DNA from: Chitinophagaceae bacterium
Lineage (GTDB): Bacteria; Bacteroidota; Bacteroidia; Chitinophagales; Chitinophagaceae
Assembly (NCBI GenBank): GCA_044341875.1
Contig: JBIIQT010000008.1
Coordinates: forward strand, 3,393 to 67,392
Direction: 5' to 3'
Length of the DNA stretch: 64,000 nt
Position numbers and translations under genes: made by a program
Notes under the pieces: model-generated
Database searches by the model: none
The model's input: only the letters and a program-made list of their open reading frames with translations
Told to the model about the DNA's origin: nothing
In this document: piece by piece, positions 12,617-52,631 of the stretch
Position numbering within the stretch: the first letter of the stretch is position 1
Layout of the letters: every line of letters begins with the position of its first letter

Positions 12617-12705
12617 GGTTGAAGAGGTTGAGGATGTTGAAGGAAATTCTTAAACTACTTCAACTGGCCGAAGCCTGACTTAAACCCCTTCAACTTCCCT
12701 CAAAA
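12617..12705. repeat. 9-bp-period GTTGAAG/CTTCAAC repeat cluster in inverted arrangement
   Basis: GGTTGAAG, GGTTGAGG and TGTTGAAG at 12617/12626/12635; CTTCAAC at 12658 and 12688. Confidence 0.75.
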
Positions 12706-12813
12706 CTCAACTGCAATCAACCCTGACCCTGGTAGGGTGATGATGACCACTGCAATGTAGCAGATGAATTAGCAGAGTATAGTTGAAATCCTTTTGGATG
12801 GACTCGCGATCAT
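12700..12813 (-). pseudogene. Possible decayed small membrane or secreted protein gene
   Basis: Reads MIASPSKRISTILC*FICYIAVVIITLPGSGLIAVEF* with an in-frame TAA at 12769-12771; A-rich leader and TATATTCG element at 12910-12917 on the minus strand. Confidence 0.3.
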
Positions 12814-12962
12814 GATAGTGATTCGTTTTTGAGAAAATCAGGTGATGTAGCAATTCAGTAGAAATTGGAGTAGGATTGGTTTTGGGAGGAAATTGAATGA
12901 AGACTTCTGCGAATATATAGGCCGAAATGGGCATATGCAAGTTTGAACCCTGTCAAATTTGT

Positions 12963-12970
12963 TAACTTTG
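12963..12970 (+). promoter_or_regulatory. -7 promoter element for cca (TAACTTTG)
   Basis: Exact consensus, with TTTG at 12942-12945; only 5 nt before ATG 12976. Confidence 0.6.
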
Positions 12971-12975
12971 CGATT

Positions 12976-14451
12976 ATGCATTTTTCTTTAGAGAAGCCTG
13001 AAGCCTTAATCGTAGCAAAAATAGCGGAAGCTGCTTCATCACTTGGCGTAGAGGCCTTTGTGGTGGGTGGTATTGTGCGCGATAAATTGCTTGACCGTCC
13101 TTGTAAAGACATTGATGTTGTTTGCCTGGGTGATGCCATTGCTTTGGCCAATGCTGTCAGTGCATTGTTTGTGCCAGAACCCAAGGTTTCATGGTTCAAA
13201 AATTTTGGAACAGCTCATTTCAATATCAAAGGATATGACGTAGAATTTGTGGGGGCAAGGAAAGAGAGCTATCAGCATGATTCTAGAAATCCCATTGTGG
13301 AACAAGGGACACTTCAGGATGATCAGGAGAGAAGGGATTTTACCATTAATGCCTTGGCTTTTTCAGTTATGGATTATCTGCCAACGGCAAATGGACAATC
13401 CATAAGCCATGCTGCTCAAAGTAATGACAGGAATCTGCATGCTATTTCAGTAATCGATCCATTCAATGGAATTGAAGACCTCGAACGGGGGATCATCAAA
13501 ACACCACTTGCCCCAGAAAAAACATTTAGCGATGATCCGTTGAGAATGCTCAGGGCCATTCGTTTTGCCTCACAGTTGGGATTTACCATTGAGTCCAATA
13601 CGTTGCTTGGTATTTCTGATACAGCACACAGAATTTCCATCATTTCACAAGAGCGAATTACAGATGAATTCAACAAGATCCTTCTTTCGCGCAAGCCCTC
13701 TGTCGGATTGGATCTTTTGTACAAGACAGGCTTGTTGAAAATCATCTTCCCACAAATGGTTGATCTTGCCGGTGCGGAATACATTGACGGCAAGGGCCAC
13801 AAGGATAATTTTTACCATACCCTGCAGGTGATTGACAATGTTGCTGCCAACACCAATAACCTTTGGTTGCTCTGGGCCGCCTTGTTACATGATATTGCAA
13901 AGCCCGCCACCAAAAGGTTTGAGGACGGTATTGGCTGGACATTCCATGGTCATGAAGTGGTAGGCGGAAGAATGGTGCCAAAGGTTTTCACCAAGCTGAA
14001 ACTTCCCATGCATGAGAACATGCGGTATGTGAGAAAATTGGTTGAATTGCATTTGAGGCCCATCAGCCTTACAAAAGATAATATCACAGACTCTGCTATT
14101 CGTCGGCTCCTCTTTGATGCAGGTGATGACTTGGAAGATTTGATGACCCTTTGTGATGCAGACATTACGTCTAAGAATGAAGCAAAAGTGAAACGGTTTC
14201 GCAACAATTTCGAAATGGTCCGCATTCGTTTGAGGGAAGTGGAAGAAAAGGACAAGGTGCGAAATTGGCAGCCGCCCATTACAGGAGAGCTCATCATGGA
14301 AACCTTCAAGCTGCAACCCTGCAGGGAAGTGGGATTGATCAAAACAGCTATTAGAGAAGCGATTCTTGACGGATTGATTGAGAACAATTATGATGCAGCT
14401 TTTGCCATGATGATGGAGCAAGGCAAGCAACTCGGACTCGCTGGCCTTTGA
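12976..14451 (+). CDS. cca: CCA tRNA nucleotidyltransferase with HD domain (class II)
   Basis: VVGGIVRD...DIDVV, EFVGARKESY, RRDFTINALA, DDPLRMLRAIRFA and LLHDIAK motifs. Confidence 0.88.
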   Translation: MHFSLEKPEALIVAKIAEAASSLGVEAFVVGGIVRDKLLDRPCKDIDVVCLGDAIALANAVSALFVPEPKVSWFKNFGTAHFNIKGYDVEFVGARKESYQHDSRNPIVEQGTLQDDQERRDFTINALAFSVMDYLPTANGQSISHAAQSNDRNLHAISVIDPFNGIEDLERGIIKTPLAPEKTFSDDPLRMLRAIRFASQLGFTIESNTLLGISDTAHRISIISQERITDEFNKILLSRKPSVGLDLLYKTGLLKIIFPQMVDLAGAEYIDGKGHKDNFYHTLQVIDNVAANTNNLWLLWAALLHDIAKPATKRFEDGIGWTFHGHEVVGGRMVPKVFTKLKLPMHENMRYVRKLVELHLRPISLTKDNITDSAIRRLLFDAGDDLEDLMTLCDADITSKNEAKVKRFRNNFEMVRIRLREVEEKDKVRNWQPPITGELIMETFKLQPCREVGLIKTAIREAILDGLIENNYDAAFAMMMEQGKQLGLAGL

Positions 14452-14471
14452 TCAATCTGTCATCATACGGC

Positions 14472-15356
14472 TCAACTGATTTCCAATCGGCTGAACCAGG
14501 TGATTTGTCGTTTGGCGTAATTTCTGGTATGCTGTTTGATTTTTTCAACAGCCTCTTCCCTCGAATATTTTCCCTCAAAAAAATCAAATAGTTCTTTGTA
14601 TCCCACTGTTTGCAAGGCTGATAAATGTCTGAATTCAAACAAAGTCCGGGCCTCATCTTCCAATCCTTCTGCCATCATCATGTCTACCCGATGATTGATT
14701 CTTGTATAGAGATCTTCCCTTGGCATTTGAATAAAATGATAGCGGATCCTGAAATTTCTTTTGTCAACAGACCTGCTAGAATCTGCTTCGCCCAAATGTT
14801 TTTGCGCAATCCCTTTTTGAAAATGGGCAATTGGAAACCCTGTATGCAGGACAACTTCCATGGCCCTCATCATGCGGTTGGGATTATGGGTCTCTCCATT
14901 GATGGCAAATCCAGGATCCAGGCTGAGCAATGCATCCCTGAGTCCTTCAAGACCTTTAGTCTGGTGGATGGCGATGACCTCATTGCGAACTGCAATGGGC
15001 ACTTCAGGAATATCATCGAGTCCTTCAGCGAGGGCCTTGATATAAAGACCCGTTCCGCCACATACCACGGCTTGATCATGGTCTTGAAAAATGATGTCAA
15101 GACAGGCGAGGGCCTCTTTTTCAAAACTGGCTGCTGTAATGTTTTCGTGAATGGAATGGTTGGCAATGAAATGATGCCTCACTGCAGATAGTTCTGCATC
15201 AGAGGGCCTTGCAACACCTATTTTCATTTCCTTGTAGCATTGCCTTGAGTCTGCAGAAATGATTTCAGTTTTCAGTGCTGTTGCAATCTTGATGGCCTCA
15301 GCGGTTTTTCCCACGGCGGTAGGTCCAACAATAATGATGCATTCTTTTTCGGCCAT
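14472..15356 (-). CDS. miaA: tRNA dimethylallyltransferase
   Basis: GPTAVGKT, IISADSRQ, VCGGTGLYIKAL, VGYKELF and TRNYAKRQITWF motifs. Start ATG 15356. Confidence 0.95.
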   Translation of the reverse strand: MAEKECIIIVGPTAVGKTAEAIKIATALKTEIISADSRQCYKEMKIGVARPSDAELSAVRHHFIANHSIHENITAASFEKEALACLDIIFQDHDQAVVCGGTGLYIKALAEGLDDIPEVPIAVRNEVIAIHQTKGLEGLRDALLSLDPGFAINGETHNPNRMMRAMEVVLHTGFPIAHFQKGIAQKHLGEADSSRSVDKRNFRIRYHFIQMPREDLYTRINHRVDMMMAEGLEDEARTLFEFRHLSALQTVGYKELFDFFEGKYSREEAVEKIKQHTRNYAKRQITWFSRLEIS

Positions 15357-15357
15357 G

Positions 15358-15930
15358 CTAAAATGATGTATCCTCTTCAGTGCCTTCTGCCTCTTCTCCG
15401 GCATCGTCACTTTCTCCGGCATCTTCACCTTCATCAGAAAAACCATCACCAAGAGAAGCAAGATCATATTTCTCTTCTACATCTGCAAAGCGGTCACCAA
15501 GGATGCTTTTGATGCCATATTGGCTTGGTCCTATCCCTTCTTTCCTCGTAACGGAAGGGTAGGTTATTTTTGAATTTTCCTCTTTTGAAACACCGATCAA
15601 TTGCACCTTGAATGACCAGTTTTTTTTGAAGTCATAGAGGTAGATGAATTTTTGTTCTGTATCCCGGATCTCGGATCCGATGATCGTTTCAAACATGTCC
15701 AATGGATCTACCCTGTATTCAACATCATTGTATTTTTCCAGGCTGATTTCTCTTCCCCGCTGCCAGCTATCGTTGCTCCTGAAAAAGGTTGCCTGATGAA
15801 TACTGTCGAATTCATAGGCCGACAATATCATTTGGTGCAGTTCAAAAAAAGACTGGTTGTGCTTGATGACAATGTCGCGATAAATGGTATCGTCTTCTTC
15901 GAAATAGACACGAAATTTTAAAATGGCCAT
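15358..15930 (-). CDS. pRiA4b ORF-3-like conserved protein with acidic tail
   Basis: LHQMILSAYEFD..HQATFF and KFIYLYDF...WSF.VQL pattern; D/E-rich C-terminus; 1 nt upstream of miaA. Confidence 0.7.
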   Translation of the reverse strand: MAILKFRVYFEEDDTIYRDIVIKHNQSFFELHQMILSAYEFDSIHQATFFRSNDSWQRGREISLEKYNDVEYRVDPLDMFETIIGSEIRDTEQKFIYLYDFKKNWSFKVQLIGVSKEENSKITYPSVTRKEGIGPSQYGIKSILGDRFADVEEKYDLASLGDGFSDEGEDAGESDDAGEEAEGTEEDTSF

Positions 15931-16011
15931 GACGCAATTTAATGAAAATTAGGGACACAGCGTAGGGCTGCACCAACTTGCAGGATTGATATTGTCCTTT
16001 AAAATCTGGGT

Positions 16012-17541
16012 TTAAAATTTGAATCCAACCGTCAGGAAAATATTGCCATTGCTTCCCCGCACATTACCAGGCTCATAATAGCCATTATCAAGCCGGTAGG
16101 GGAAACTGGCATCCTTGATCAGTTGTTGTACATAGGTGAGGTCCACGAAAAATCCCATGTTACGGTATCCCAATCCTCCACTGATGTTCATCTGTCTGGC
16201 TTTCAACAAAGTATTCGCGTAGGCATTGCCCATGTAGTTGAAGCCAAGCCTGGTCATGATGGTCTTGAACTTGAGTTCACCGCCCAACCGCATGTTCAAA
16301 GCAGACCTGAATTGTTCCCTGATCGCATCGTTCACCTGGTTAAGGTAACCGTCATCACTGGTAGTGGCCCCAGTGAACTTCGCATTGGTATAGTCCAGGT
16401 ATTCGATGTCAGCACTGATGAAACCTTTTTGCATGTTGACGTCGGCAACCTCATTCAATACATAGGAAATACCTGCCATCAAGCGCATCGGGTTGGTGAA
16501 ATTGTATTGAAACTGCCCCAGTTCCCCATCGTTGAAATCCAGAGAACTCTGCTTGAGTACGCCGTTCCCCTGATAGCCTTCAAGGTCTGTAGTAATCTTA
16601 CTGCTGTACTTATCATCCATGTTGTACAAAACAGGAGAGTGAAAAGCCAATCCGATCCTGAGCCTTTCTATAGGCTTCACAATCAGCCCCAATTTTAAAC
16701 CAACCCCTACACCTTCGCTGATGAGATAGTCTTCGGTTTCAAAATAATTGAAATTGTTTTTTTTGTTGGACGTGGCATCAGACTCCCTGTAAATGGAGGT
16801 TCTTTCATACTTGAGCTTGCTGAACGTAATACCACCGCCGACAAATAGTTTATCAAGATAGTTGCCACTTGCAGAGAAATAGATGTCATTGATGCTTCCC
16901 TTGGTGGTGATGTCCTGTTGTTGGTTCACGCCAGTTTGGGGAGTGGAAAGGCTTCTGTAGCCCCTGATGCTGCCACCAGGACCTGCAAGGGTATCAATGA
17001 GGTAAGTATTGAAGGCAAGGCTTGATCCGTATGGAAATTTTGATGCAGCCTGGTTGGGATCTGTCACATTGTTGTTGATCAGCTCTTCCAGGTATTTCTC
17101 CGAGTAGGAGCTTTCTGTATTGGTTCCTTGCAACCTTGTGCTATTGCCAAAGTTTACGATTTTGTTCATACCGATACCATAGGTGAAATTTCTCCATTTG
17201 CCGTTCCATGATCCTGGCCTGGGCAATACCAGTCCTATGTTGCTGAAATCAGGGGTGATTTTGTTGGCCTTTGTTTCGGTATTGAGGTAGTTGATCCTGG
17301 TATTGTTGAATGCCAGTGAGGGTGTAAATGTGAACTCTCCACTTTTGTAAAGGCCTAGCCCTGCAGGGTTGATGAATGCCGCAGAAATATCTCCACCCAA
17401 AGAAGTCATTGCTCCCCCAATAGCCCTGGCCCTGGCTGTTCCGCCGTGTCCCATCAATGAATAACGGAGGGCATCAACAGGCTCCTGCGCTTGCAGCTGT
17501 AGGCCAAACAAAATGCTGAATAGAATGGGGAGTTGCTTCAT
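16012..17541 (-). CDS. OmpP1/FadL-like outer membrane beta-barrel protein
   Basis: Signal peptide, GTARARAIGGAMTSLGGDISAAFINPAGLG motif, C-terminal ...TVGFKF. Start 17541 preferred over 17574. Confidence 0.8.
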   Translation of the reverse strand: MKQLPILFSILFGLQLQAQEPVDALRYSLMGHGGTARARAIGGAMTSLGGDISAAFINPAGLGLYKSGEFTFTPSLAFNNTRINYLNTETKANKITPDFSNIGLVLPRPGSWNGKWRNFTYGIGMNKIVNFGNSTRLQGTNTESSYSEKYLEELINNNVTDPNQAASKFPYGSSLAFNTYLIDTLAGPGGSIRGYRSLSTPQTGVNQQQDITTKGSINDIYFSASGNYLDKLFVGGGITFSKLKYERTSIYRESDATSNKKNNFNYFETEDYLISEGVGVGLKLGLIVKPIERLRIGLAFHSPVLYNMDDKYSSKITTDLEGYQGNGVLKQSSLDFNDGELGQFQYNFTNPMRLMAGISYVLNEVADVNMQKGFISADIEYLDYTNAKFTGATTSDDGYLNQVNDAIREQFRSALNMRLGGELKFKTIMTRLGFNYMGNAYANTLLKARQMNISGGLGYRNMGFFVDLTYVQQLIKDASFPYRLDNGYYEPGNVRGSNGNIFLTVGFKF

Positions 17542-17631
17542 GCGAAATGATTTAGGTTGCAGGAGTTCAGCCATTGGGTATTGTGCATGGGCCTGAAGAC
17601 CTCATCATCAAACCAAAACTGAACATCTGAA

Positions 17632-18378
17632 TTAGTTTCCTCCTCTGGGGAATGATCTTACAGGTGCAGATCCACTGCTGGAAGAACTGCTGCTTGACCC
17701 CGAGCTGTTTGAGCTTGAACTTGAGCTTGAACTGCCTGAGTTTGAGGAATTGGAGAAAGTCCTTGAGGGGCTGCTATAAGACTCTCCACTGCTGCGGGGG
17801 TTGTATCCTCCTCGTGGGATGTTGCTACCAGAATTAGAAGATTGTCCTCCTGAGCGAAAAAATCCGCCTCCCAGTTTAGGGTCAGCAGCGCTGGTTCTCA
17901 TGGGTGTATAATTGCTCAATGAATAAGTTCTTGGCCCTGTTGAATTTGGAGCAATTGATTTGGAGGAATTTAAAACAATAACAGGTTGACCATAGTAATT
18001 GGGGGAGAATGGATTCAGGTAGGGAGACATTCCAAAAGGCATGGGCCTCCCCCAAAACAAACTGTTCATACCTGAGTAGCCAAAAGTGGGGTGCAGGTTA
18101 AAGTAGTTGCTGTTGTTCCAGTGAGGATTGTTCCAATAGGCATAATCATCATCAAATGAATTCCATCTGGAACCTCCGAAGGCCTTCATCCGCATATACC
18201 GATCAGTCATGGGAACTTCTGAAGCCCTGTATTCATCTTCTTCTTCCAGATTGACATATTCGGCGCCTGGCCTGGCTGGAGAAAAATACACGTCATCAAT
18301 GGTCTGTCCTGTCCTGAAGGCTGTGCTGCACCCCATCATGATGGAAGCAAGCGAAATGGCAAGAATGATCCTGTTCAT
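17632..18378 (-). CDS. Hypothetical lipoprotein with Ser/Gly-rich disordered tail
   Basis: Lipobox IMMGC, DDVYFSP motif, poly-Ser C-terminus. Start ATG 18378 (MNRIILA). Confidence 0.75.
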   Translation of the reverse strand: MNRIILAISLASIMMGCSTAFRTGQTIDDVYFSPARPGAEYVNLEEEDEYRASEVPMTDRYMRMKAFGGSRWNSFDDDYAYWNNPHWNNSNYFNLHPTFGYSGMNSLFWGRPMPFGMSPYLNPFSPNYYGQPVIVLNSSKSIAPNSTGPRTYSLSNYTPMRTSAADPKLGGGFFRSGGQSSNSGSNIPRGGYNPRSSGESYSSPSRTFSNSSNSGSSSSSSSSNSSGSSSSSSSSGSAPVRSFPRGGN

Positions 18379-18410
18379 ACGATGCGATTTAAAGATTAAT
18401 CCGAAGTTAC

Positions 18411-18418
18411 TACATTTG
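18411..18418 (+). promoter_or_regulatory. -7 promoter element for proS (TACATTTG)
   Basis: Exact TAnnTTTG match upstream of proS. Confidence 0.6.
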
Positions 18419-18501
18419 CGCAATCCTGTTCCATTATTTAGACGAACGGCAAGTGTTAAAGTTGCAGTCAATTGAACAAAAACTGTTAAAGCATTAATAA
18501 T

Positions 18502-22712: not shown

Positions 22713-25700
22713 ATGAAAAAGCTAACGCTTATCCTAACCATGCTCTGTACTTCCTGGTTGTTGGGTTTTTCCCAGCAGTCTAGAATCAGCGGAAAGGTGA
22801 CCAGCAGCGAGGGAGGAGCACCTGCAGAGGGTGTTTCCGTTCTTGTCAAGGGTGCCAAAAACGGTACAAGAACCAATTCCGCTGGTGAATTTACCATCAA
22901 CGCATCCACCGGACAAACCATCGTTCTTTCCGGTATTGGCTTTGCCTCAAAGGAGGTAGTGGTCAATGGCAATCAGTTGGATATAACCCTTACCTCTACT
23001 TCTTCAAGTCTTAATGAAGTAGTTGTGGTAGGATATGGTACACAGAAAAAAGCAAATCTTACCGGATCAGTTGTCTCGCTTAAGCAAGAGGATCTATTGA
23101 AGCGTCAGGTAGCCACTGCAAGCAACCTTTTGCAAGGTCTTGCACCAGGTGTAACAGTGACCCAACAATCAGGACGCCCTGGTGCTGATGGTGCCTCCAT
23201 CCGGATTCGCGGCTTGAGTTCCATTTATGCTGGTCAGAGTCCATTGATCATGGTTGATGGAGTTGTTTCGAGCCTGGATGCCATTGATCCCAATGCCATT
23301 GAGAGCATTACGATTCTCAAGGATGCAGCATCAACCGCCATTTATGGAACACGTGCAGCCAATGGTGTTGTGTTGGTAAAAACCATTCGTGCAAAGGGTA
23401 AAGGCGTCAAGGTGAGCTACAACAGTTTTGTTTCCAAGCAGATTGCAACTGCAATGCCTGAAAGGACAACCGCTATTGAGCACATGGAACTGAGCAATGT
23501 AGCAGAACAAAACAGAACAGGAAACCCCGCCGCATTCCTTTTCCAACAGCCATTGATTGACAAATACAAAACTACACCGGCGAATAATCTTGATGTTATT
23601 GACAACGACTGGGTGGACCTCTTGTTTACCAATTCTGCATTGATGCAGAACCATAACGTAACGCTTAATTCGGGTGGCGAGAATACCAATGTATTCACCT
23701 CCGTTACCTACCTGGATCAGCAGGGCCTGATTCCCAATAACAGTTTCAAGCGCTATGATATTCGTTTCAATCCTGATTTCAAGCTGAGAAAAAACCTGAC
23801 CTTGAGTGGGGTTTTCAACTATAACTTCAGCAAGAATACGGCTCCATCAACATCCAGTCCTGAATTTATCATCCGTCAGGCCATTGGATTGCCTGCAATC
23901 GGTGCCGCTAAATTTGGTCCTGGAATGTATGGAACTGCAGGACAGACCAACAATAGAAATCCACTGGCCCAGGCCGAAGCTGCAGGTACATCCGTTTCTG
24001 AAAACAATTCATTCCTGAGTAAAATTGCGCTCAATTACAAGCCCATTGAAAGCCTTGAATTGGAAGCCTATTGGTCTCGCGAGCATTGGACCCCCCATGG
24101 AAAGACTTTTACCAAGAATGCAGACATTTATGTGCCGAACCTGGTTACTTCAGGATATGACAAGATCAGCCAGTGGCCTGGTTCCACTAGCCTTGGAGAG
24201 TCTTATTCGTCGAACACAAGGAATACCATGCTCGCACAGGCAACTTTTTCCCAAAACTTTGGCAACCACCAATTCAAATTGTTGGCTGGTGGTCAAACAG
24301 AGGAATTCTTGTATGAAGGCATCTCCGCTTCCAGAACTGGTTTCAATAACCCTGATCAACCCTATCTGAATCTTGGTGCTGCAGACAGAAACAATGCTGG
24401 TTCCGCCTACCAAACTGCGCTGGCTGGTTTTTATGCAAGGATGAACTACAGTTATGACGATAAATATCTTCTCGAAGTCAATGGCCGATATGATGGTTCA
24501 TCAAGGTTTTCACAGGCCTTGAACAAGCAATGGGGCTTTTTCCCATCTGCTTCAGCTGGATGGATCTTCTCCAAAGAGAAATTCTTTGATGGCCTGTCAG
24601 GTTTGATCAATTTCGGAAAAATCAGGGCCTCCTATGGCTTGCTGGGAAATCAGGCGTTGCCAGAGATCTATCCTTTTGCTGTGAATTACCAAACCTCAAC
24701 GTATTCCAATCCCAACAATGGAACAAGCACTTATTTGAACAATGTTACCACGCTGGGATATGCATTGCTGGATGCGCCCAACCCGGGCATCACATGGGAG
24801 AACTCAGCACAGATGAACGTAGGTATTGACCTTACAGTGAAGCGAAACCTTACCCTGACATTTGATTATTACAAGCGCGCCATCAGTGAAATTCTTTTGT
24901 CGAGGCCCATTCCTTCCTATATTGGCTTGAGTCCTCCTTTTGTAAATGCCGGAGACATGACCAATACAGGTTGGGAGGTGAGTGCGAATTACAAAGCCAA
25001 TATCAGCAAGAAATTTAGGCTTGATGCAACCCTTATGCTGAGTGATGTTGTGAACGAAGTAACAGCATTGCCTGGTGTACCTTTCCTGGATGGAGGTTCT
25101 TCGCGTACAGCAGTTGGACAGGCCTTGTGGTCCTATTTTGGTTATCAAGCGATTGGATATTTCAAGGACGCCAATGATATCACCAGTTCACCGGTTCAGT
25201 TTGGTGTTCCCTTTAGTGCAACCACTGCCAATGGCCCCAAGCCTGGAGATGTAAAATATGCCGATATCGGCGGTGCTAATGGAAAGCCAGACGGAATAAT
25301 TGATGCTTTTGACAGGACCTTTATTGGTAACAGCTTTCCTCGCTATGAATACAGTGTTAACCTTAACCTTAGCTATGTGAACTTCGACCTTAACTTGTTT
25401 GGACAGGGTGTAGGATTGAGGAACAATTATCTCAGCGGTACAGGTGCCATTCCTTTCAACAGCAGTGATTTTGTTGCTTCACTTCTCTCTATACACAAGG
25501 ATTACTGGACACCTTCCAACACCAATGCAACCTTCCCCCGTTTGTTGCCTTCCGGTTCAGGTGGAACAAATTTTGTTGCATCCGACAAATGGATCAGGAG
25601 TGCTGCCTACTTCAGGATCAAGAACATCAATCTTGGATACAGGTTGCCTTCATCTGTCATCAAAAGGTTGAAGATTACTGGAGCAAAGGTTTACGCCAGC

Positions 25701-35313: not shown

Positions 35314-35360
35314 TCGTTGAAGGAGTTGAATTTTTATTTTGTTGATTTGCATTTTATCGC

Positions 35361-43211: not shown

Positions 43212-43232
43212 GATTTATATCAACATAATCAA

Positions 43233-43982: not shown

Positions 43983-44037
43983 TTCACTCAATCCAGATAA
44001 GCTTAATTCACTATTTTTACCATACATTTTACAACGC

Positions 44038-44823: not shown

Positions 44824-44857
44824 ACGATTATTATCACCATATAAATTTCCCATCAGC

Positions 44858-45385
44858 ATGACAACAGATCCGCGTTACCCCATCGGCAAAGTGCAGTTTG
44901 TTGATTATTCTGAGAAGGAAAAGGAAGCAAGGCTGGCAGATATTTTGTTTCTTCCAAGGATGCTTGAGTATGCTGTATTGAACCTGGATGAAGCACAGAT
45001 CCAGACACCATACCGTGAAGGCGGTTGGACGGTGAATCAGCTCATTCACCATGTGGCCGATTCTCACATGAATGCCTTCATTCGATTCAAGCTTGGATTG
45101 ACAGAAGATGCACCGGTCATCAAGCCTTATAACCAAGATCAATGGGTAGAAACGGCTGATGTCTTGAACAGCCCCGTCAATATATCCATCACCCTGCTTC
45201 ATTCTTTGCACCATCGCTGGTATGAATTGCTGAAAACGATCAAGGATGAGGAGTGGCAAAGAACCGTATTTCATCCTGAGCAGCAGCGGCATATCACCCT
45301 CTGGCAGTTGCTGTTGATCTATGCCTGGCATGGCAAACACCACGCTGCGCATGTTACCAACCTTCGGGAGCAAATGGGCTGGTAG
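44858..45385 (+). CDS. bstA: YfiT/BstA family bacillithiol transferase (DinB superfamily)
   Basis: DPRYPIG, TPYREGGWT..Q..HHVADSHMNA..RFKL.LTED and YAWHGKHH motifs. Confidence 0.87.
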   Translation: MTTDPRYPIGKVQFVDYSEKEKEARLADILFLPRMLEYAVLNLDEAQIQTPYREGGWTVNQLIHHVADSHMNAFIRFKLGLTEDAPVIKPYNQDQWVETADVLNSPVNISITLLHSLHHRWYELLKTIKDEEWQRTVFHPEQQRHITLWQLLLIYAWHGKHHAAHVTNLREQMGW

Positions 45386-45428
45386 ATTCTGTTGTTCATA
45401 TTGTGTAATTTTATTCTAATCTCCGTCT

Positions 45429-46526: not shown

Positions 46527-46542
46527 ATGCCCCTGTATTAAA

Positions 46543-46587
46543 CTTCAACCCCTTCAACTTCTTCAACCCCTTCAACCTCCCTCAACT
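46543..46587 (+). repeat. (CTTCAACnn) x5 tandem repeat
   Basis: Units at 46543, 46552, 46561, 46570 and a degenerate unit at 46580; ends just before ATG 46594. Confidence 0.85.
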
Positions 46588-46593
46588 TTTACA

Positions 46594-48072
46594 ATGGACA
46601 ACATACATACACTCGGCGCACTAAAAGCTACAGGCTATAAAAGCAAAAGCATCAAAGAAGAAATGCGGGATAACCTGATCAGCAAGATGCAGGCAGGGGA
46701 GGAGAGATTTCCTGGTATTGTTGGATACGAGGATACTGTTATTCCTGACACTGAGCGTGCGATCCTGTCAAGGCACAACATGCTTTTTCTCGGATTGCGT
46801 GGCCAGGCCAAAACCCGGATGGCGCGCTTAATGATCGATCTTCTGGATGAATATGTTCCATACATCGCCGGTAGCGATATCCATGACGATCCATTCCATC
46901 CTATTTCAACCTACGGGAAACGGATGATTGAAGAGCAGGGTGATCAGGCGCCCATCAGCTGGCTTCACAGGACTGAACGCTATGGTGAAAAACTGGCCAC
47001 ACCAGACGTATCTGTGGCTGATCTTATCGGTGACATCGATCCGGTAAAAGCCGCCAACCTGAAGTTGGATTTTTCAGATGAACGTGTGATTCATTATGGC
47101 ATCATCCCTCGGAGCAACCGCTGCATTTTTGTGATCAATGAGTTGCCCGATTTGCAGGCCCGCATACAGGTTTCCCTGTTCAATATTCTGCAGGAAGGCG
47201 ATATTCAGATTCGTGGATTCAAGTTGCGCTTGCCATTGGATATTGTCTTTGTGTTCACTGCCAACCCTGAGGATTATACCAACCGCGGTTCAATTGTGAC
47301 ACCATTGAAGGACCGTATCGAGAGCCAAATACTTACACACTACCCCAAATCAATGGAAGCGGCCTTGAGCATTACCGCCCAAGAGGCCGCTGTACACGAA
47401 TCACAATCTAAGCTCATTGACCAAAGTGATCTGGGGGCAAGAATCATTGAGCAGATTGCCTTTGAGGCCAGGTCCAGTGAGTTTGTTGACCAGAAGAGCG
47501 GTGTTTCCGCCAGGTTGACCATTGCTGCTTTGGAAAATGCATTCAGTGCCGCAGAAAGAAGGGCATTGATCAACAAAGAGAAATCAACACAGATATGGAT
47601 GAGTGATCTGCAGGGCATAATTCCTGCTATCACTGGAAAGATAGAGTTGGTGTATGAAGGCGAACAGGAAGGTCCTTATCAGGTGAGTGTAAATTTGCTT
47701 GAGCGATCCATCAGAACTGTCTTTACGCAGTATTTTCCTGATCCTGAGGGCTTCAAGAAAAAGCGCAACAAGGAAGCCACTGTTGAAAGTCCATACAAAA
47801 CCGTTTCACAATGGTTTGATCTTGGTAATCATATCAACATGTTGTTTCATTTGAAGGACAATGATCGTGTGAAATTACTGAACACAGTCGTCGGATTGTC
47901 TGAACTTGTTTTACAATATTATCCCAAGGCAACTGGCAAACACAAGGCACTGCTCATGGAATTTGTTCTTTATGGATTAAGTGCTTATTCACTCATCAGC
48001 AAGAAAATCCTTTCTGAAAAAATCGAGTTCAGGGATTTGATGGGAAGTATGTTTTCGGGGGAAGAGATTTAG
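46594..48072 (+). CDS. AAA+ ATPase, Mg-chelatase/MoxR-related
   Basis: Walker A variant GLRGQAKT, Walker B variant FVINE, FTANPEDYTNRG and PLKDRI motifs; follows the VWA gene. Confidence 0.87.
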   Translation: MDNIHTLGALKATGYKSKSIKEEMRDNLISKMQAGEERFPGIVGYEDTVIPDTERAILSRHNMLFLGLRGQAKTRMARLMIDLLDEYVPYIAGSDIHDDPFHPISTYGKRMIEEQGDQAPISWLHRTERYGEKLATPDVSVADLIGDIDPVKAANLKLDFSDERVIHYGIIPRSNRCIFVINELPDLQARIQVSLFNILQEGDIQIRGFKLRLPLDIVFVFTANPEDYTNRGSIVTPLKDRIESQILTHYPKSMEAALSITAQEAAVHESQSKLIDQSDLGARIIEQIAFEARSSEFVDQKSGVSARLTIAALENAFSAAERRALINKEKSTQIWMSDLQGIIPAITGKIELVYEGEQEGPYQVSVNLLERSIRTVFTQYFPDPEGFKKKRNKEATVESPYKTVSQWFDLGNHINMLFHLKDNDRVKLLNTVVGLSELVLQYYPKATGKHKALLMEFVLYGLSAYSLISKKILSEKIEFRDLMGSMFSGEEI

Positions 48073-48122
48073 GGAGGTTGAAGCGTTGGGGGTTGTGAGT
48101 TATGGGTTGTGGGTTGGGTTGG
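48071..48122 (+). repeat. GT-rich repeat tract (GTTGAAG and GTTGTG-type units)
   Basis: agggaggttgaag followed by ggttgtgagttatgggttgtgggttgggttgg. Confidence 0.7.
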
Positions 48123-48215
48123 ACACGTTAGTCATATTTTATGGTTTATAGATGCTGAATAGTGCTGACATGAGTCAAGTTTTGTGTCAACTTAAATTAG
48201 GACGAGGCATTAAAC

Positions 48216-48256
48216 GAATAAGAAAAGGCCAAGCATTGCTTGGCCTTTTCTTATTC
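48216..48256. terminator. Bidirectional terminator with 19-bp perfect inverted repeat
   Basis: gaataagaaaaggccaagc-att-gcttggccttttcttattc between convergent genes. Confidence 0.85.
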
Positions 48257-48282
48257 ACAACCCTAAACCCACAACTCATTAA

Positions 48283-51200
48283 CTATTTATTCACCGCTTC
48301 CAGCCCCCTCAAATAATCCAACAAAATCAGCGCCTGGCGAATTTCCATGAACATCGTTCTTTGGTCGTTGTTCAGGTTGTCGGCCTTGTTGGACATGAGG
48401 TCTTGAACGGCCTGGTTCATTTCAGGAATGGACATTCCTCCGATATAGGCATAATAAGCCAATTGTTCGTTCAGGTCTTTGCTCAATGAAGCAGAAACTT
48501 TTGCAGCAAGTTTCTTGTCGCCGGCTTTGTAGGCTGCTTCAAGGAACTGGATGCTGATGGTATTGTGTTGGTTCTGTCTGCTGACAAGTCCGTATGGGAA
48601 ATTCTCTGCAAGCAAATTCTTGTCGGCAATATTCAGCAGTTCTTTGGCCTTCTCTGTCTGGCCTTCCAAAGCCAGCTGGTTGGCTACTTCAGCATATGAT
48701 TGCCTGATGCCCACCAGGTGTCTCCTGTTTTCCTCATCAAAATAGACGCCAGGAATATTGGCACTTCCGAATGCAAATTTATTCTTCAACACTTCATAAG
48801 ATACCCTTGAATTGATCATGTTCTGGCCGGCCACAGGAACAAGGCGATAGGCCTGACCCTCGCTGCGGAGGTATTGGCTAAAACCCAATTCGCCAAATGG
48901 AGAGGTAAAATAGATTGGGCGGCTCCATTTGTTGGCAGCAATGATGTTCAATACTGCCATGTCATTTTTCAGGAGCATGTCTTTGGGAAGATCGAACCTT
49001 ATTTCAGTGCCTACACTATCCCCCGGTTCTACTGTACCATTTTTTCTTACAGTGGCAATGTCAACGGGCAGACTTACTTTCTTCACAGGAAGATAGTTCA
49101 TCATGGTTCCGTCCTGCATTTGCAATTGCGCTGAAGGATCATCGCTGCCAATGAAATCATGCATCAGGCTGTAGAGGTCCACATACCTGTTCTGGTCGGT
49201 GATGCCTTCCCTTTCAAAGAACCTTACATAGTCGCGCTTTCCACCTTCAATCTGGTCCGCTGACCAGATGACGTCAATTGGAGCACTTTCGTTCACTTTG
49301 TAGCGCATCTGGTTTATGTACCAGTCAATGCCCAGCAAAGAATAGTTGATAACCCTGATGTCTTTCCTGATGCCTTCCACTTCCTGTGCATACCAAAGAG
49401 GGTAGGTATCGTTGTCTCCAAATGTAAAGAGTATCGCATTGGGGGCACAGCTCTCAAGGTAGTTTTTGGCGAGGTCGCGTGCAGTTTGTTTTTTGCTTCT
49501 GTCATGATCATCCCACTCTTCTGCCGCCATTAGTACTGGTACGGCCAAAAGGCAAACCAATGCTGCAGCTGCATTTGAAACCGATTGACTGGTAAACTTT
49601 GATAACCAATCTTTGATTTGCAATACACCCAAACCAATCCAAATGGCAAATGCATAGAAGGAACCTACATAGGCATAGTCTCGTTCACGTGGTTGGTTGC
49701 CCGCTTGGTTCAAATAGAAAACAATGGCCAGGCCTGTAAAGAAAAACAGGAGGAAGGATACAAATGAACCTTTCTTGTCTTGCTTGTATTGATAAAGAAT
49801 ACCGAGGATCCCAAGAATAAAAGGAAGCGCAAAAAGCTTGTTGTTTGCCTTGTTTTGCTTTATGCTCTGCGGGAGTTTATCCTGGTTCCCCAACATGGCA
49901 TTATCTACCGCACTGATGCCAGTGAGTGTGTTTGCATCGCGTTTGTTGCCGAAACCCTGGATATCATTTTGTTTTCCAACAAAGTTCCAGCCAAAGTAGC
50001 GGAGGTACATCCAGCCAATCTGATAGCTCATTGCCCAGCTGATGTTATGGGCCATGGTTGGTTTTTCGCCATCCGCCAGGTTGAGCCAGCGTTGGTAGAA
50101 GGTAGCATGACCCTGGTCATTGCTGGCATCCCATACGCGTGGTAGCAACATTTTGTCTTCTGCTTCATACACAGGAGACTGGTCTTTGCCCACTGCAAGG
50201 TATTTTTCTTTTCCTTTCACATAGCGGGTTGATCCCTCTTCGTAGTCGATGGGTTTTGCAGTAAATACCTGACCGTAAAGCAACGGGAAGTCTCCGTATT
50301 GCTCACGACCAAGGTATCCTTCAAGGCTCATTGGATTGTCAACATTGTACATGTCGATGGCAGGGTTTGCTGCTGAACGAATCATCGTTGTGATGTAGGT
50401 TGAATATCCCAACAACATGAAAGCAAAGCACCAGAGGCCCAGTTTAAGAAAATATCCATTGGCCTTCATTTTTCCGGAATTGGCATATTTGATGCCCAAG
50501 AAAATCGCAAGTACCAACAATGCGAAAAACACGGTGAAGCCAGTAAAAAATGGCATTCCCAGTGAATTGACGAAGAAGATGTCGAACTTTCCTGCGGTTT
50601 TGATCGTGTACTGAATAACCGCTTTCTGTGCAACTCCGGTTATGATACACCCGATGATAAACGCAATGAAGGTTCCTTTTCCGGTAACCTTGTAACGCTT
50701 ATAGTAATATACCATTACAATGGCAGGGATGGTAAGCAGGTTGAGCAAGTGAACGCCAATGGAAAGACCCATCATGAAAAAGATCAGTACAATCCATTTG
50801 TCCGCTCCGGGTTGATCGGCATTGTGTTCCCATTTCAACATCATCCAAAAAACCAGTGCCGTGAAAAAGGATGAGAGTGCATATACCTCGCCTTCAACAG
50901 CACTGAACCAAAATGAATCACTGAAGGTATAGGCCAAAGCACCAACAGTACCAGCAGCCATGATAGAGAAGATCTGGTTTCCGTTCAGTACTTCAGATCC
51001 TTTTTGTACGATTTTTCGTGCAAAATGGGTGATGGTCCAGAACAGGAACATGATGGTGAAGCCACTTGCCAGCGCACTCATCACATTTACGGCTTTTGCA
51101 GCCGTAAGAGGGTTGTCTCCAAAGAAAATGATGAAAACCCTGCCGATGATCACAAAAAGTGGCGCTCCTGGAGGATGGGGAATCTGCAGTTTAAAACATG

Positions 51201-51321
51201 AGCTGATAAATTCACCACAATCCCATAAGCTTCCGCCTGCCTCTGCGGTCATGATATAGACAGAACAAGCGATAGCTGTTACGATCCATCCAACGATGTT
51301 GTTAATCCTGTTAAACGACAT
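48283..51321 (-). CDS. DUF2723 multi-TM protein (TMEM260-like GT-C glycosyltransferase)
   Basis: WDCGEF...HPPGAPLF, SAVEGEVYA, RERDY.YVGS and GDNDTYPLWYAQEV motifs. ATG 51321 is supported by a -7 element at 51340-51347. Confidence 0.88.
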   Translation of the reverse strand: MSFNRINNIVGWIVTAIACSVYIMTAEAGGSLWDCGEFISSCFKLQIPHPPGAPLFVIIGRVFIIFFGDNPLTAAKAVNVMSALASGFTIMFLFWTITHFARKIVQKGSEVLNGNQIFSIMAAGTVGALAYTFSDSFWFSAVEGEVYALSSFFTALVFWMMLKWEHNADQPGADKWIVLIFFMMGLSIGVHLLNLLTIPAIVMVYYYKRYKVTGKGTFIAFIIGCIITGVAQKAVIQYTIKTAGKFDIFFVNSLGMPFFTGFTVFFALLVLAIFLGIKYANSGKMKANGYFLKLGLWCFAFMLLGYSTYITTMIRSAANPAIDMYNVDNPMSLEGYLGREQYGDFPLLYGQVFTAKPIDYEEGSTRYVKGKEKYLAVGKDQSPVYEAEDKMLLPRVWDASNDQGHATFYQRWLNLADGEKPTMAHNISWAMSYQIGWMYLRYFGWNFVGKQNDIQGFGNKRDANTLTGISAVDNAMLGNQDKLPQSIKQNKANNKLFALPFILGILGILYQYKQDKKGSFVSFLLFFFTGLAIVFYLNQAGNQPRERDYAYVGSFYAFAIWIGLGVLQIKDWLSKFTSQSVSNAAAALVCLLAVPVLMAAEEWDDHDRSKKQTARDLAKNYLESCAPNAILFTFGDNDTYPLWYAQEVEGIRKDIRVINYSLLGIDWYINQMRYKVNESAPIDVIWSADQIEGGKRDYVRFFEREGITDQNRYVDLYSLMHDFIGSDDPSAQLQMQDGTMMNYLPVKKVSLPVDIATVRKNGTVEPGDSVGTEIRFDLPKDMLLKNDMAVLNIIAANKWSRPIYFTSPFGELGFSQYLRSEGQAYRLVPVAGQNMINSRVSYEVLKNKFAFGSANIPGVYFDEENRRHLVGIRQSYAEVANQLALEGQTEKAKELLNIADKNLLAENFPYGLVSRQNQHNTISIQFLEAAYKAGDKKLAAKVSASLSKDLNEQLAYYAYIGGMSIPEMNQAVQDLMSNKADNLNNDQRTMFMEIRQALILLDYLRGLEAVNK

Positions 51322-51339
51322 ATTTTTGTGTTTAGGAGA

Positions 51340-51347
51340 CAAATATA
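51340..51347 (-). promoter_or_regulatory. -7 promoter element for the DUF2723 gene (TATATTTG)
   Basis: caaatata on the + strand; overlaps the track's TTG start, which argues for the downstream ATG. Confidence 0.6.
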
Positions 51348-51559
51348 ATGAAATGCGTTTTGAGTTGTGGGGTTTGAATCTAGTCTTCCTGTTGGCGCTT
51401 TTATATTTATAGACATAATACTGGTGTTCAGGGGTTTTACAGCTGATTTTAGATGTGTAAATATTGCTTACAACATATCATTTTAGCGCAACAGAAAAAC
51501 TAATCCCTCCTTTTGAATACGATTTTTAAATTTCATTTTGCTCGAATGTAAAAACCCAT

Positions 51560-51567
51560 TATTTTTG
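51560..51567 (+). promoter_or_regulatory. -7 promoter element for tRNA-Lys (TATTTTTG)
   Basis: Exact consensus 23 nt before the tRNA. Confidence 0.65.
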
Positions 51568-51590
51568 CACTCCCAATTACGGAGTGGAAT

Positions 51591-51663
51591 GAACTCGTAG
51601 CTCAGTTGGTAGAGCAATACACTTTTAATGTATGGGCCCTGGGTTCGAGTCCCAGCGGGTTCA
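51591..51663 (+). tRNA. trnK: tRNA-Lys (UUU); CCA not encoded
   Basis: Acceptor stem GAACTCG/CGGGTTC, D arm GCTC/GAGC, anticodon arm ATACA-CTTTTAA-TGTAT, T loop TTCGAGT. Confidence 0.95.
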
Positions 51664-51668
51664 CTCTC

Positions 51669-51696
51669 AAAAGCCACCTTTTTAAGGTGGCTTTTT
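51669..51696 (+). terminator. Intrinsic terminator after the tRNA
   Basis: aaaagccacctt-ttt-aaggtggctttt. Confidence 0.85.
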
Positions 51697-51785
51697 CCAT
51701 TTGCGCATCTGTCTTTTCAAAATGAGTGATAAGCCCAATCGTCCAGAGTATAATGGTTATTTGAATTTATGAGTAGATTTGCAGT

Positions 51786-52601
51786 ATGAGCCAATTCACG
51801 AATAAAACAGTTGTTGTTACAGGTGGAACGGATGGCATAGGACGGGCCTTGGTCCTGAATTTTTTAGATTTGGGGGCCAACGTCGTTACCTGTGGGCGAA
51901 ACCAGCAAAAAATTCTTGCTTTAGAGGCCGAGGCTCCAATGGGGAGAATTTGTGTGCTCAATGCTGATGTTTCTGTCGAAAAGGACTGTGAACGTTTGGT
52001 GGATCATGCTGTGAAAATGTTTGGAAGCATAGATATTTTGATCAACAATGCAGGAATCTCAATGAGGGGCTTGATGGAAGATGGTGGGAAAGGCATTATT
52101 CCGGTGATCAAAAAGGTAATGGACGTCAATTTTTATGGAGCTATGTATTGTACAACCTTTGCACTGCCCCACCTGATCAAGTCAAGTGGAGTAGTGGTAG
52201 GGGTGTCCTCCATTGCAGGATACAGAGGCTTGCCTGGTAGAAGCGGATATTCTGCGTCCAAATTCGCCTTGCAGGGTTGGCTAGAAGCCCTAAAAACAGA
52301 GGTGGTTGAAAAAGGTGTTCATGTCATGTGGGTTAGTCCCGGGTTTACAGCTTCAAACATCAGGAACGTTGCTTTGAACCAACATGGAGAAGCCCAGGGA
52401 GAATCCCCATTGAATGAAAATGAATTGATGGATGCATCAACCTGTGCCAACATCATCATAGCGGCCATTGCCAAGCGAAAACGAACTGTTGTGATGACTT
52501 TCCAGGGTAAACAGACGGTTTTCCTCAATAAATTTTTCCCATCTCTGGCTGACAAGTTGGTCAGGAAATTTTTCTTTAGAAATGGGGAATTGATTAAATA
52601 G
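51786..52601 (+). CDS. SDR family oxidoreductase
   Basis: TGGTDGIG, NNAG and catalytic YSASK motifs. Confidence 0.93.
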   Translation: MSQFTNKTVVVTGGTDGIGRALVLNFLDLGANVVTCGRNQQKILALEAEAPMGRICVLNADVSVEKDCERLVDHAVKMFGSIDILINNAGISMRGLMEDGGKGIIPVIKKVMDVNFYGAMYCTTFALPHLIKSSGVVVGVSSIAGYRGLPGRSGYSASKFALQGWLEALKTEVVEKGVHVMWVSPGFTASNIRNVALNQHGEAQGESPLNENELMDASTCANIIIAAIAKRKRTVVMTFQGKQTVFLNKFFPSLADKLVRKFFFRNGELIK

Positions 52602-52614
52602 TTTCATTCAATAC

Positions 52615-52631
52615 CTTCAACCACTTCAACC
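52615..52631 (+). repeat. (CTTCAACnn) x2
   Basis: CTTCAAC at 52615 and 52624, just upstream of ATG 52644. Confidence 0.6.

Follow-up and report, generated by a model that had tools for sequence, protein, structure and literature searches.

The short tandem repeats scattered between the genes of this Chitinophagaceae bacterium probably (at about 0.6) belong to palindromic hairpin elements built of tandem repeats and designed like the ORF-bearing 23S rRNA IVS, of which they form the two arms or, in places, the one arm that is left. In a complete element, the G-rich array would be followed by a leader (~70-120 nt), then by the gene for a PF05635 four-helix bundle and lastly by the complementary C-rich array; the whole would occupy a spacer, its arms abutting the stop and start codons on either side. 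Upon read-through transcription, the arms are predicted to base-pair with each other, and the resulting long stem would be cut by RNase III, which is encoded in the genome (C108:8142-8504), as in rRNA IVSs, leaving an upstream mRNA that ends in the G-arm and a downstream mRNA that starts with the C-arm. Homologous recombination between same-family arms may allow copies to spread or to be replaced, perhaps with the aid of the encoded protein. Reading the arrays as IVS-like arms opens to testing the intergenic short tandem repeats of bacteria, which have long lacked an explanation.

The analysed genome (G000) is a 2.75 Mb Chitinophagaceae MAG, and the window is the whole 64,000-nucleotide stretch of it considered here. 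Genes were called with a crude ORF model made for this analysis. Array counts from a PWM search were controlled against the reversed genome and CTTCAAC counts in the window against shuffles; the 9-mer family was compared across 31 same-genus genomes and 16 other genera. Cassette statistics were drawn from 30 genus cassettes, with the 5' arm scored in 27 and the 3' arm in 26.

Arrays, hairpins and their polarity

The arrays form a genuine family confined to this lineage. CTTCAAC occurs 26 times in the window against 12.2 +/- 3.8 in shuffles, and the distance between successive copies genome-wide is 9 bp in 42 cases and 18 bp in 12, other distances being almost absent. The PWM search returned 46 arrays in G000 and 2 in the reversed genome; both counts are above chance. 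Their characters are of STRR type: short tandem units, dispersed and overwhelmingly intergenic (32 of the 46 arrays, with the crude gene calls leaving only ~6% of the genome intergenic), in lineage-specific families (the 9-mer family is present in 9/31 same-genus genomes and 0/16 other genera) with a fast turnover that gives orthologous spacers different units. Unit lengths range from 7 to 10 nt; the dominant unit is the 9-mer, and the 7-, 8- and 10-mers share a GGTT core.

The window contains only gene-less copies, namely two hairpins (12617-12712 and 48071-48282) and four solo arms (Table 1). The coordinates and gene names of the first-pass annotation were exact and in agreement with Pfam, respectively; its minus-strand remnant ORF at ~12700 has no open frame and matches neither G000 nor the cassette genes. 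Searches by tblastn, blastn and tblastx recovered no PF05635 gene or remnant enclosed by the window arrays, and an Rfam scan of the window returned one tRNA only; all copies lie between or inside protein-coding genes, outside 23S rRNA helices 25 and 45.

Table 1. Arms, solo arrays and hairpin interior located in the window
Feature	Position	Strand	Context
G-arm, three 9-bp units (GGTTGAAGN)	12617..12643	+	first base after dapD stop codon
C-arm, two blocks (CTTAAAC/CTTCAAC units)	12649..12712	+	imperfect pairing with G-arm 12617-12643
Solo G-type array, two units (GTTGAAGGAGTTGAA)	35316..35330	+	3 nt past lpdA stop
Solo C-type array, four exact CTTCAACNN units and a degenerate CCTCAAC	46543..46588	+	period 9, 4.8 copies
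G-arm, one 9-mer unit (GGTTGAAG), then GGGTTGTG-type 7-mers	48071..48122	+	overlaps AAA stop codon
Interior of gene-less hairpin element	48123..48255	.	resembles no cassette gene or leader
C-arm (CACAACC CTAAACC CACAACTCATTAA)	48256..48282	+	abuts stop of minus-strand DUF2723/TMEM260-like gene
Short solo G-type tract (TGAGTTGTGGGGTTTGAA)	51361..51378	+	left edge of divergent spacer
Solo C-type array (ATTCAATAC CTTCAACCA CTTCAACC)	52606..52631	+	fills 42-nt spacer before SAM_HAT (DUF62) gene

In both hairpins, and in the 13 strict pairs described below, the terminal arms are complementary and can fold into a long stem. The dapD hairpin (region 12610-12720) folds at -26.6 kcal/mol (z = -2.1), its C-arm being split at 12665-12678 by a mini GC hairpin (tGGCCgaaGCCtga). 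The spacer between the AAA and DUF2723 genes (48065-48290) reaches -81.9 kcal/mol (z = -6.6), with the arms pairing around the interior. This interior holds a perfect 19-bp stem-loop (48216-48256), set between an A-run and a T-run, that resembles a bidirectional terminator by eye; a consensus scan of 48000-48350 called no terminator. The arrays themselves lack a T-run, the T-run stem-loop sitting separately inside the arms. The remaining arms are solo: the array upstream of the AAA-ATPase start (46594) fills its spacer, and the tract at 51361-51378 lies next to where the DUF2723/TMEM260-like gene starts on the minus strand, so that the sequence upstream of that start reads C-type.

Throughout G000, arrays adjoining stop codons are G-type in the sense direction (30:12, p = 0.008) and those adjoining start codons are C-type (17:4, p = 0.007). 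The polarisation by gene orientation reported in the first pass is therefore significant, but it restates a single rule that is independent of gene direction: spacers read a G-rich and then a C-rich array on either strand (47:16, p = 1.2e-4). The same order prevailed in the TRF set (33:8), whether the flanking genes were convergent, divergent or tandem in either direction, and in the replicate genome G004 (26:5); all 13 strict hairpin pairs of G000 and G004 were G-then-C, against 0 C-then-G. Spacer polarity is thus fixed whatever the direction of the flanking genes, and GT-rich units follow stops and CA-rich units precede starts, in any gene direction, because the element reads from G-arm to C-arm on both strands. 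The inverted repeats noted around the AAA gene (46570-46582/48071-48083, 13 bp) and DUF2723 (48268-48278/51361-51371, 11 bp) exist exactly as given, with no extension beyond these lengths; they arise because two neighbouring spacers carry the same repeat family, an automatic outcome that is no evidence for the AAA and DUF2723 genes being cassettes.

PF05635 cassettes and their turnover

A small cassette family is supported: PF05635 genes are bracketed by both unit families seen in the window, the 9-mer and the 7-mer. G000 has a single PF05635 gene (C73:23647-23961, 82 bits), with an arm of (GGGTTGTG)n on one side and one of (CCCACAA)n on the other, and its protein matches PDB 2GSC, a pentamer of S23p type; arms of the 9-mer GGTTGAAG flank PF05635 genes in G042:C31 and G004:C206. 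Among the genus cassettes, G outnumbers C in the 5' arm of 26/27, while C outnumbers G in the 3' arm of 24/26. The tie to four-helix-bundle genes proposed in the first pass is borne out by these cassettes and by the G000 gene; the accompanying tie to GxxExxY genes is not supported, PF13366 genes being absent from G000. The window is connected to the C73 cassette through the AAA/DUF2723 hairpin, whose 7-mers belong to the family of the cassette 5' arm (G000:C73:23476-23535) and whose C-arm end, CCCACAACTCATTAA (48268-48282), is identical to the end of the cassette 3' arm. For the window copies, the link to PF05635 is a common unit family, not direct descent.

PF05635 clades correspond to unit families (GTTGTN, GTTGA/GTTTA and GGGAnnA). 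The correlation between protein clade and unit family reaches a Mantel r of 0.57, or 0.43 after exclusion of pairs above 70% identity, and neither value was attained in 5000 permutations; gene clade and unit family go together. Strict 9-mer counts among the 31 genomes are highest (89 and 44) in the two that carry a 9-mer-type gene, a coincidence with a chance of ~1/465. Arrays of 9-mers also occur without a 9-mer-type gene in the incomplete MAGs G000, G014 and G019, and arrays or hairpins without any PF05635 gene in the likewise incomplete G019 and G044; contig ends in these assemblies often carry arrays. Complementarity between arms is no greater in cis (-1.348 kcal/mol/nt) than in trans (-1.349; p = 0.51), and therefore gives no sign of stem-perfecting selection or fold-back copying. 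More speculatively, and in our view rather improbably, PF05635 proteins could be the specificity factor of a class of transposase-less selfish elements, in which each lineage would recognise its own unit (GTTGA-type 9-mers, GTTGT-type 7-mers or GGGAnnA 7-mers) and promote array amplification, maintenance or recombinational capture; STRR and their kin would then largely be arms or debris of such elements, and the 23S rRNA IVS just one landing site.

Array sites are polymorphic between relatives: orthologous spacers gain or lose arrays or swap families, as the first-pass annotation had predicted for mobile cassettes. The dapD spacer runs to 326 nt in G000, whereas G007 has 48 nt and G022 has 17 nt in place of the whole of it; the lpdA site holds ~13 GGGACRA units in G007 and none in G022; spacers orthologous to that upstream of the AAA gene carry other unit families or none, with a different unit per species in the same layout; and the G007 spacer homologous to that before the SAM_HAT gene holds a single CCTCAACCC unit. 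The cassette also decays in place to a gene-less remnant: at the C73 site, four relatives share two deletions and retain a 55-nt fragment of the gene along with the leader and a short G-arm. Furthermore, hairpins can sit in-frame inside genes, where the element behaves as an insertion: a G-arm and C-arm hairpin lies within a loop of a GNAT gene and a C-array within a glycosyltransferase linker, both absent or different in orthologues. No target-site duplication was visible at polymorphic sites, and no candidate mobility enzyme was seen. The arms often flank what appears to be the spacer's own terminator, instead of lying side by side, which is hard to explain by a single point insertion.

Alternative origins of the arrays

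The arrays could instead be RNA signals selected by the host, acting as terminator or processing hairpins, protective G-rich 3' tails or G-free unstructured 5' UTRs, with PF05635 genes as passengers. Several features would suit such a role, including an array density that falls from convergent (15/24 kb) to tandem (19/84 kb) and divergent (2/47.5 kb) spacers, the strong fold of the AAA/DUF2723 spacer, the start of arrays 0-10 nt past stops and their end just ahead of starts, and C-type leaders free of G for 44-60 nt. However, close relatives have no arrays, or unrelated units, at the same spacers, so that no sequence or site is conserved, unlike what a signal would impose; solo arms can form no local hairpin, several spacers hold a separate T-run stem-loop inside the arms, arrays are also found in-frame inside ORFs, and complementarity in cis is not in excess. 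Moreover, one symmetric rule would need two selective forces, at 3' and at 5' ends, and we regard this explanation as unlikely. We hold equally doubtful the proposal that arrays arise by themselves through replication slippage at gene boundaries, as STRR-type microsatellites, and serve only as landing pads where PF05635 genes lodge by homology. Copy number is indeed variable everywhere (the array before the SAM_HAT gene has two units in G000 against one in G007), the GNAT loop of array-free relatives resembles a proto-unit (GTGGAAAAC), and arrays persist in genomes without PF05635. In the same direction, G000 has an intact cassette at the C73 site where its nearest relatives have one common gutted allele, and the G014 gene fragment is far nearer to the G000 gene than the flanks are, which together suggest recombinational replacement. 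Slippage alone, however, explains neither one unit family at 40+ dispersed sites nor inverted arm pairs of a single polarity (13:0), and leaves unexplained the covariation of protein clade and unit family across loci and the peaks of array counts in genomes with the cognate gene.

Being intergenic, hairpin-forming, enriched past stop codons and dispersed in multiple copies, the arrays also evoke REP/BIME-type elements moved by a RAYT transposase, or IS-derived MITEs; this origin is very improbable. The Y1 transposase PF01797 has no match in G000, although 6/14 control genomes match, and the arms are tandem arrays of variable length, not a fixed 20-40-nt palindrome headed by GTAG/CGTC. As for MITEs, neither target-site duplication at the polymorphic sites, nor fixed length, nor an IS-like terminal repeat was seen, and the interiors, from 3 to >400 nt, are mutually unrelated.

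Relation to known repeat systems

A close counterpart of the hairpin elements proposed here is the ORF-bearing 23S rRNA IVS of Coxiella burnetii, Leptospira and Brucella, in which a gene for S23p (PF05635) occupies the loop of a stem made of terminal inverted repeats; the Coxiella IVS combines these with variable-number tandem GACAGAT heptamers in its 5' arm and is excised by RNase III (PMC4990558). The likeness extends to the decay of the ORF while the stem persists, to the lack of a transposase, and to the protein, as those of the IVS and of G000 correspond to the same solved structure (2GSC). Unlike the IVS, which sits in helix 25 or 45 of 23S rRNA, the present elements occupy the spacers of protein-coding genes and, occasionally, the genes themselves, their arms are long arrays of 7-14-nt units, and the majority of copies lack the gene or have a single arm. 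Excision by RNase III, established for rRNA IVSs, would apply here by analogy. Another relative in the same family is Avd of diversity-generating retroelements (DGR), a nucleic-acid-binding oligomer of small, basic four-helix bundles (PMC10053308). DGR identity (Avd with a reverse transcriptase) was rejected, as G000 has no match to PF00078 and no template/variable repeat pair. REP/BIME with RAYT are likewise extragenic hairpin repeats clustered past stop codons (PMC3733652); the elements described here differ in having no RAYT gene, no conserved tetranucleotide head, and stems made of tandem arrays.

The in-frame hairpin of the GNAT gene and the in-frame array of the glycosyltransferase gene call to mind another system. 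Rickettsia palindromic elements (RPE), as reportedly described by Ogata et al. in 2000, are selfish palindromic repeats found in-frame inside genes and translated as extra loops. RPE are fixed elements of ~100-150 bp, non-tandem and without an associated four-helix-bundle gene, and differ in these respects from the tandem arrays of G000.

At the level of single arms, the arrays resemble the STRR of cyanobacteria and the intergenic tandem heptamers GGGAATC of Xanthomonas and GGGGAYT of Nostoc (PMC4692102) and TAACTGA of Beggiatoaceae, cyanobacteria and Bacteroidetes (PMC4679880), as well as the intergenic short tandem repeats surveyed in PMC6344855. Such repeats are short, tandem, almost exclusively intergenic, lineage-specific and rapidly changing in copy number, as are the arrays here, and the searched text of these papers mentions neither a function nor a PF05635 link for them. 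The G-rich repeats of Xanthomonas and Nostoc lie nearer the 5'-side ORF whatever its orientation (PMC4692102), which is the polarity rule found here, and arrays of C-type or 'forward' type end directly ahead of start codons (PMC4679880), as they do in G000. Unlike these heptamers, the dominant unit here is a 9-mer, accompanied by the shorter and longer units with the common GGTT core.

Repeat arrays in the window and across the genus

The Chitinophagaceae MAG under study (hereafter G000; 2.75 Mb, 110 contigs, 44% GC), whose nearest named relatives are freshwater Chitinophagaceae MAGs, carries in the window (C19:3393-67392) GT-rich (G-type) and complementary CA-rich (C-type) arrays, all recovered where the first-pass annotation had placed its repeats. 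Pfam supports the names it had given to the adjoining genes, namely dapD, lpdA, an AAA-type ATPase, a TMEM260-like gene (former DUF2723) and a SAM_HAT gene (former DUF62), while its remnant ORF at ~12700 was absent on inspection of the window. The 13-bp and 11-bp inverted repeats described around the AAA and DUF2723 genes are exact, without extension beyond their described ends, and exist because two adjacent spacers carry the same unit family, which makes end-to-end mRNA pairing through them superfluous as an explanation.

Positions of the repeat arrays in the window (type as read on the + strand) and of GC-rich mini-hairpins
Feature	Position	Strand
G-type array	12617-12643	+
C-type array	12649-12712	+
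G-type array	35316-35330	+
C-type array	46543-46588	+
G-type array	48071-48122	+
C-type array	48256-48282	+
G-type array	51361-51378	+
C-type array	52606-52631	+
GC-rich mini-hairpin	window 12665-12678	
GC-rich mini-hairpin	G000:C18:32560-32590	
GC-rich mini-hairpin	G000:C53:3407-3417	
GC-rich mini-hairpins	arms in loci L105, L107, L110, L111	

An excess over shuffled DNA was found, with 26 copies of CTTCAAC in the window against 12.2 ± 3.8 in shuffles. Throughout G000, successive same-strand copies of this motif lie 9 bp (42 times) or 18 bp (12 times) apart, any other spacing up to 40 bp occurring at most three times each. A position-weight scan of G000 retrieved 46 arrays, versus 2 in the reversed, uncomplemented genome; 32 of the 46 lie between genes and 5 run across a gene end, the intergenic share of G000 being only about 6% by a crude ORF and codon model made for this analysis. 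TRF further revealed sister families with a common GGTT core: the 9-mer GGTTGAAGN, the 8-mers GGTTTAAR and GGGTTTAG, the 10-mer GGTTGAGAGA and the 7-mer GGTTGTG.

A strict three-unit pattern was detected in 9/31 genomes from the GTDB genus of G000, against 0/16 from other genera of the order, with counts of 89 in G004, 44 in G042, 40 in G014, 11 each in G000 and G019, 5 in G043 and 1-2 in three genomes, all of these being fragmented MAGs with gene calls made for the analysis and the relatives not being independent samples. Arrays are frequent at contig ends (G004:C172:3-144, G004:C198:52, G004:C206:36, G014:C202:43, G014:C71:114), a position in which they are likely to interrupt short-read assembly, so that the counts of arrays and cassettes in these MAGs should be read as minima. 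At one G004 locus (L178, C151:2100-6100), 28 G-type 9-mer units in three blocks (locus 1844-2165) lie inside an ORF call (1559-2578) that is either spurious or a protein with a long array-derived VEE-type repeat.

Polarity of the arrays

Genome-wide, stop-adjacent arrays are G-type in gene sense (30:12) and start-adjacent arrays C-type (17:4), so that the bias described in the window stood, but not its proposed dependence on gene orientation. 'G after stop' and 'C before start' look alike for both gene directions and therefore reduce to one strand-symmetric rule: on the + strand, spacers begin with a G-type edge and end with a C-type one (47:16 in G000, p=1.2e-4). The rule was recovered in the TRF set (33:8 over convergent, divergent and both tandem classes) and in a second genome, G004 (26:5 in twenty regions selected by pattern hits alone), and the arms of two-armed sites follow the G-then-C order in 13/13 strict pairs, with no reverse case. 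Since it holds in all gene-orientation classes and in strict pairs, polarity is a property of the element or spacer, not of transcription direction. The same orientation-independent bias was reported by Rehm et al. for the GGGAATC repeats of Xanthomonas (PMC4692102).

Several origins of this architecture were considered. A 'punctuation' effect, by which stop codons without C and start codons needing G would impose the polarity, fits only in part on inspection, (GGGACGA)n without stops and (CCCTTGT)n, which includes TTG, being counter-cases, and is therefore not put forward as the cause. Telomere-like 3'-end addition at breaks, an idea also prompted by Avd relatives that act with reverse transcriptases, would account for a G-then-C order resembling fused telomeres, but a search of G000 for a reverse transcriptase (RVT_1) found none, which leaves the idea unsupported. 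REP/RAYT origin is rejected by the lack of a Y1 transposase/RAYT in G000, and neither target-site duplication nor a fixed length was seen at the sites compared. Rather than exact palindromes, the stems are series of 7-bp helices that include mismatched dinucleotides, and mirror-image complementarity of these variable dinucleotides was no greater between arms of one element (cis) than between arms of other elements (trans; p=0.51); this equality of cis and trans pairs rejects both fold-back copying and strict stem selection. Short GC-rich mini-hairpins such as CTTGCCTGCC-GAAG-GGCAGG or GGCC-TGC-GGCC were also observed inside arms of several unit families and genomes, and may be a module common to different arms; in its conserved GC-clamp form, such a module is too rare in G000 to count.

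Association with PF05635 genes and decay of the cassettes

The single PF05635 four-helix-bundle gene of G000 (C73:23647-23961, 82 bits; best PDB match 2GSC) is enclosed by (GGGTTGTG)n (23476-23535) and (CCCACAA)n (24001-24033). Both arms belong to the 7-mer family found at 48085-48122 and 48256-48282 of the window, and the arm end, CCCACAACTCATTAA, is identical. The 9-mer of the window forms the arms of two other PF05635 genes (G042:C31:367-681 and G004:C206:179-493). The link between arrays and four-helix-bundle genes, which the first-pass annotation had put forward, is supported for both unit types; its companion link to GxxExxY genes finds no support in G000, where PF13366 is absent.

The 31 genus genomes yielded 34 PF05635 matches in 16 genomes, and inspection of the flanks of 30 of them revealed a recurrent cassette, with a 5' array richer in G than C in 26/27 cases, a leader of 66-120 nt before the ATG, and a 3' array richer in C than G in 24/26; the arms frequently start at the neighbour's stop codon and finish at the next start codon. 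The protein tree groups these genes by unit family (GTTGTN, GTTGA/GTTTA and GGGAnnA clades). Genes whose proteins are more alike in identity share more arm 6-mers (Mantel r=0.57), also after removal of pairs above 70% identity (r=0.43), 0/5000 permutations reaching either value, and this signal weakens below 50% identity (r=0.08). The two genomes with a 9-mer-type PF05635 gene rank 1 and 2 among the 31 for 9-mer load. Beside this, about twelve tandem 12-mers (GGCGGAGGGAAA) run from the stop codon of the AAA gene in G014 (locus L083, contig C86), and the other end of the 418-nt spacer is occupied by a complementary C-rich array; the 12-mers belong to the arm family of G014's own PF05635 gene (L106).

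Comparison of the C73 cassette site (G000:C73:23440-24050 versus loci L188-L191) directly shows gene-bearing cassettes turning into gene-less repeat relics. What is left in the four nearest relatives (G019, G042, G014 and G007) is a shortened G-arm, the leader, a C-arm vestige and 55 nt from the most conserved part of the gene, with two deletion boundaries identical in 4/4. G000 is nested among these gutted relatives, yet its cassette is intact, and the 55-nt fragment of G014 is about 95% identical to the G000 gene, versus 80% for the flanking gene, a pattern that may point to gene conversion or recombinational replacement between cassette copies. Within the window, the hairpin interiors (12643-12942, 48118-48260 and 51343-51590) gave no gene match by tblastn with 30 PF05635 proteins, and their matches to 30 cassettes (blastn and tblastx) were confined to the arrays themselves.

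Arrays also enter coding sequences. A GNAT gene (C97:17444-18022) carries in its WWAFVVE...IAFALYY loop, and in frame, a complete hairpin of G-arm and C-arm some 120 nt long; the hairpin is absent from G013 and G044, vestigial in G019, has another interior in G043 and is reduced to a solo C-arm in G004. In a glycosyltransferase gene (C62:18208-19191), an in-frame C-type array codes for a linker rich in S/T/P, which more distant orthologues lack.

Cassette-type polymorphism in relatives, implied by the initial proposal of mobile-cassette scars, was seen at the dapD, lpdA and AAA spacers. The entire window is syntenic with contig C31 of G007 (about 93% protein identity), and in both genomes the majority of spacers are conserved and free of arrays. 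Lengths of the dapD spacer are 326 nt (G000), 48 nt (G007) and 17 nt (G022), and the region directly 3' of lpdA holds two GTTGAAG units in G000, about 13 GGGACRA units in G007 and none in G022. Both sides of the AAA gene keep a constant layout with a different unit in each of ten species (GGGACGA, GGCACGA, GTTATGA/AACCCAC, GTAGTGGTT, the 12-mer of G014 and others); three species have a plain terminator hairpin only.

Proposed mechanism and implications

We consider the arrays to be selfish hairpin elements resembling the intervening sequences (IVS) of 23S rRNA, together with the debris of such elements, with a probability of roughly 0.6. The Coxiella IVS combines terminal inverted repeats, an S23p (PF05635) ORF and tandem GACAGAT heptamers that are variable; its stem is cut by RNase III, and the ORF decays while the RNA structure persists (PMC4990558). 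RNase III is encoded in G000. By analogy with Coxiella, the arms of read-through transcripts would fold together and be cut, leaving an upstream mRNA ending in G-type repeats and a downstream mRNA starting with C-type ones. Spread may proceed by recombination via same-family arms, which fits the C73 site and the lack of a mobility enzyme, and a possible role of the encoded PF05635 protein in spread fits the agreement between clade and unit and the dose effect. The cassettes are IVS-like and the arrays resemble intergenic short tandem repeats (STRR); within the literature searched, no connection between STRR and IVS studies was found.

Among the periodic repeats that separate prokaryotic genes, those of the tandem heptamer type are the most frequent, and a survey of them sees "no clear clue" to what they do (PMC6344855). 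Within the one genus studied here, three lines of evidence tie arrays to a specific, assayable family, PF05635, with rRNA-resident relatives for which excision by RNase III is established: arms built of the same unit families, a unit that tracks the clade, and a load that peaks with the cognate gene. A long-standing descriptive problem thereby becomes open to concrete questions on binding, processing and mobility. Our analysis contributes a test inside one genus that covers non-heptamer (9-mer) arms, a correlation between protein clade and unit family, a dose relation with the cognate gene, a decay series at orthologous sites and a negative cis-complementarity result. Practical effects include MAG assemblies that are probably broken by the arrays and translated loops added to proteins, and through the arrays even very close species differ in the 5' and 3' untranslated ends of their housekeeping genes.

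Among minor features of the window, Rfam identified one tRNA gene and no other family (51591-51663, RF00005, 72.9 bits), in the divergent spacer adjoining the DUF2723-like gene. Two 'spacers' of the crude gene model (10747-11725 and 14452-15357) are conserved in G007 and G022, without repeats, and are evidently overlooked minus-strand genes. Directly after the gene at 53524-54561, an open frame runs from 54595 past the window end at 64000 (>3135 aa in the window), reaching C19:69188 for about 3733 aa.
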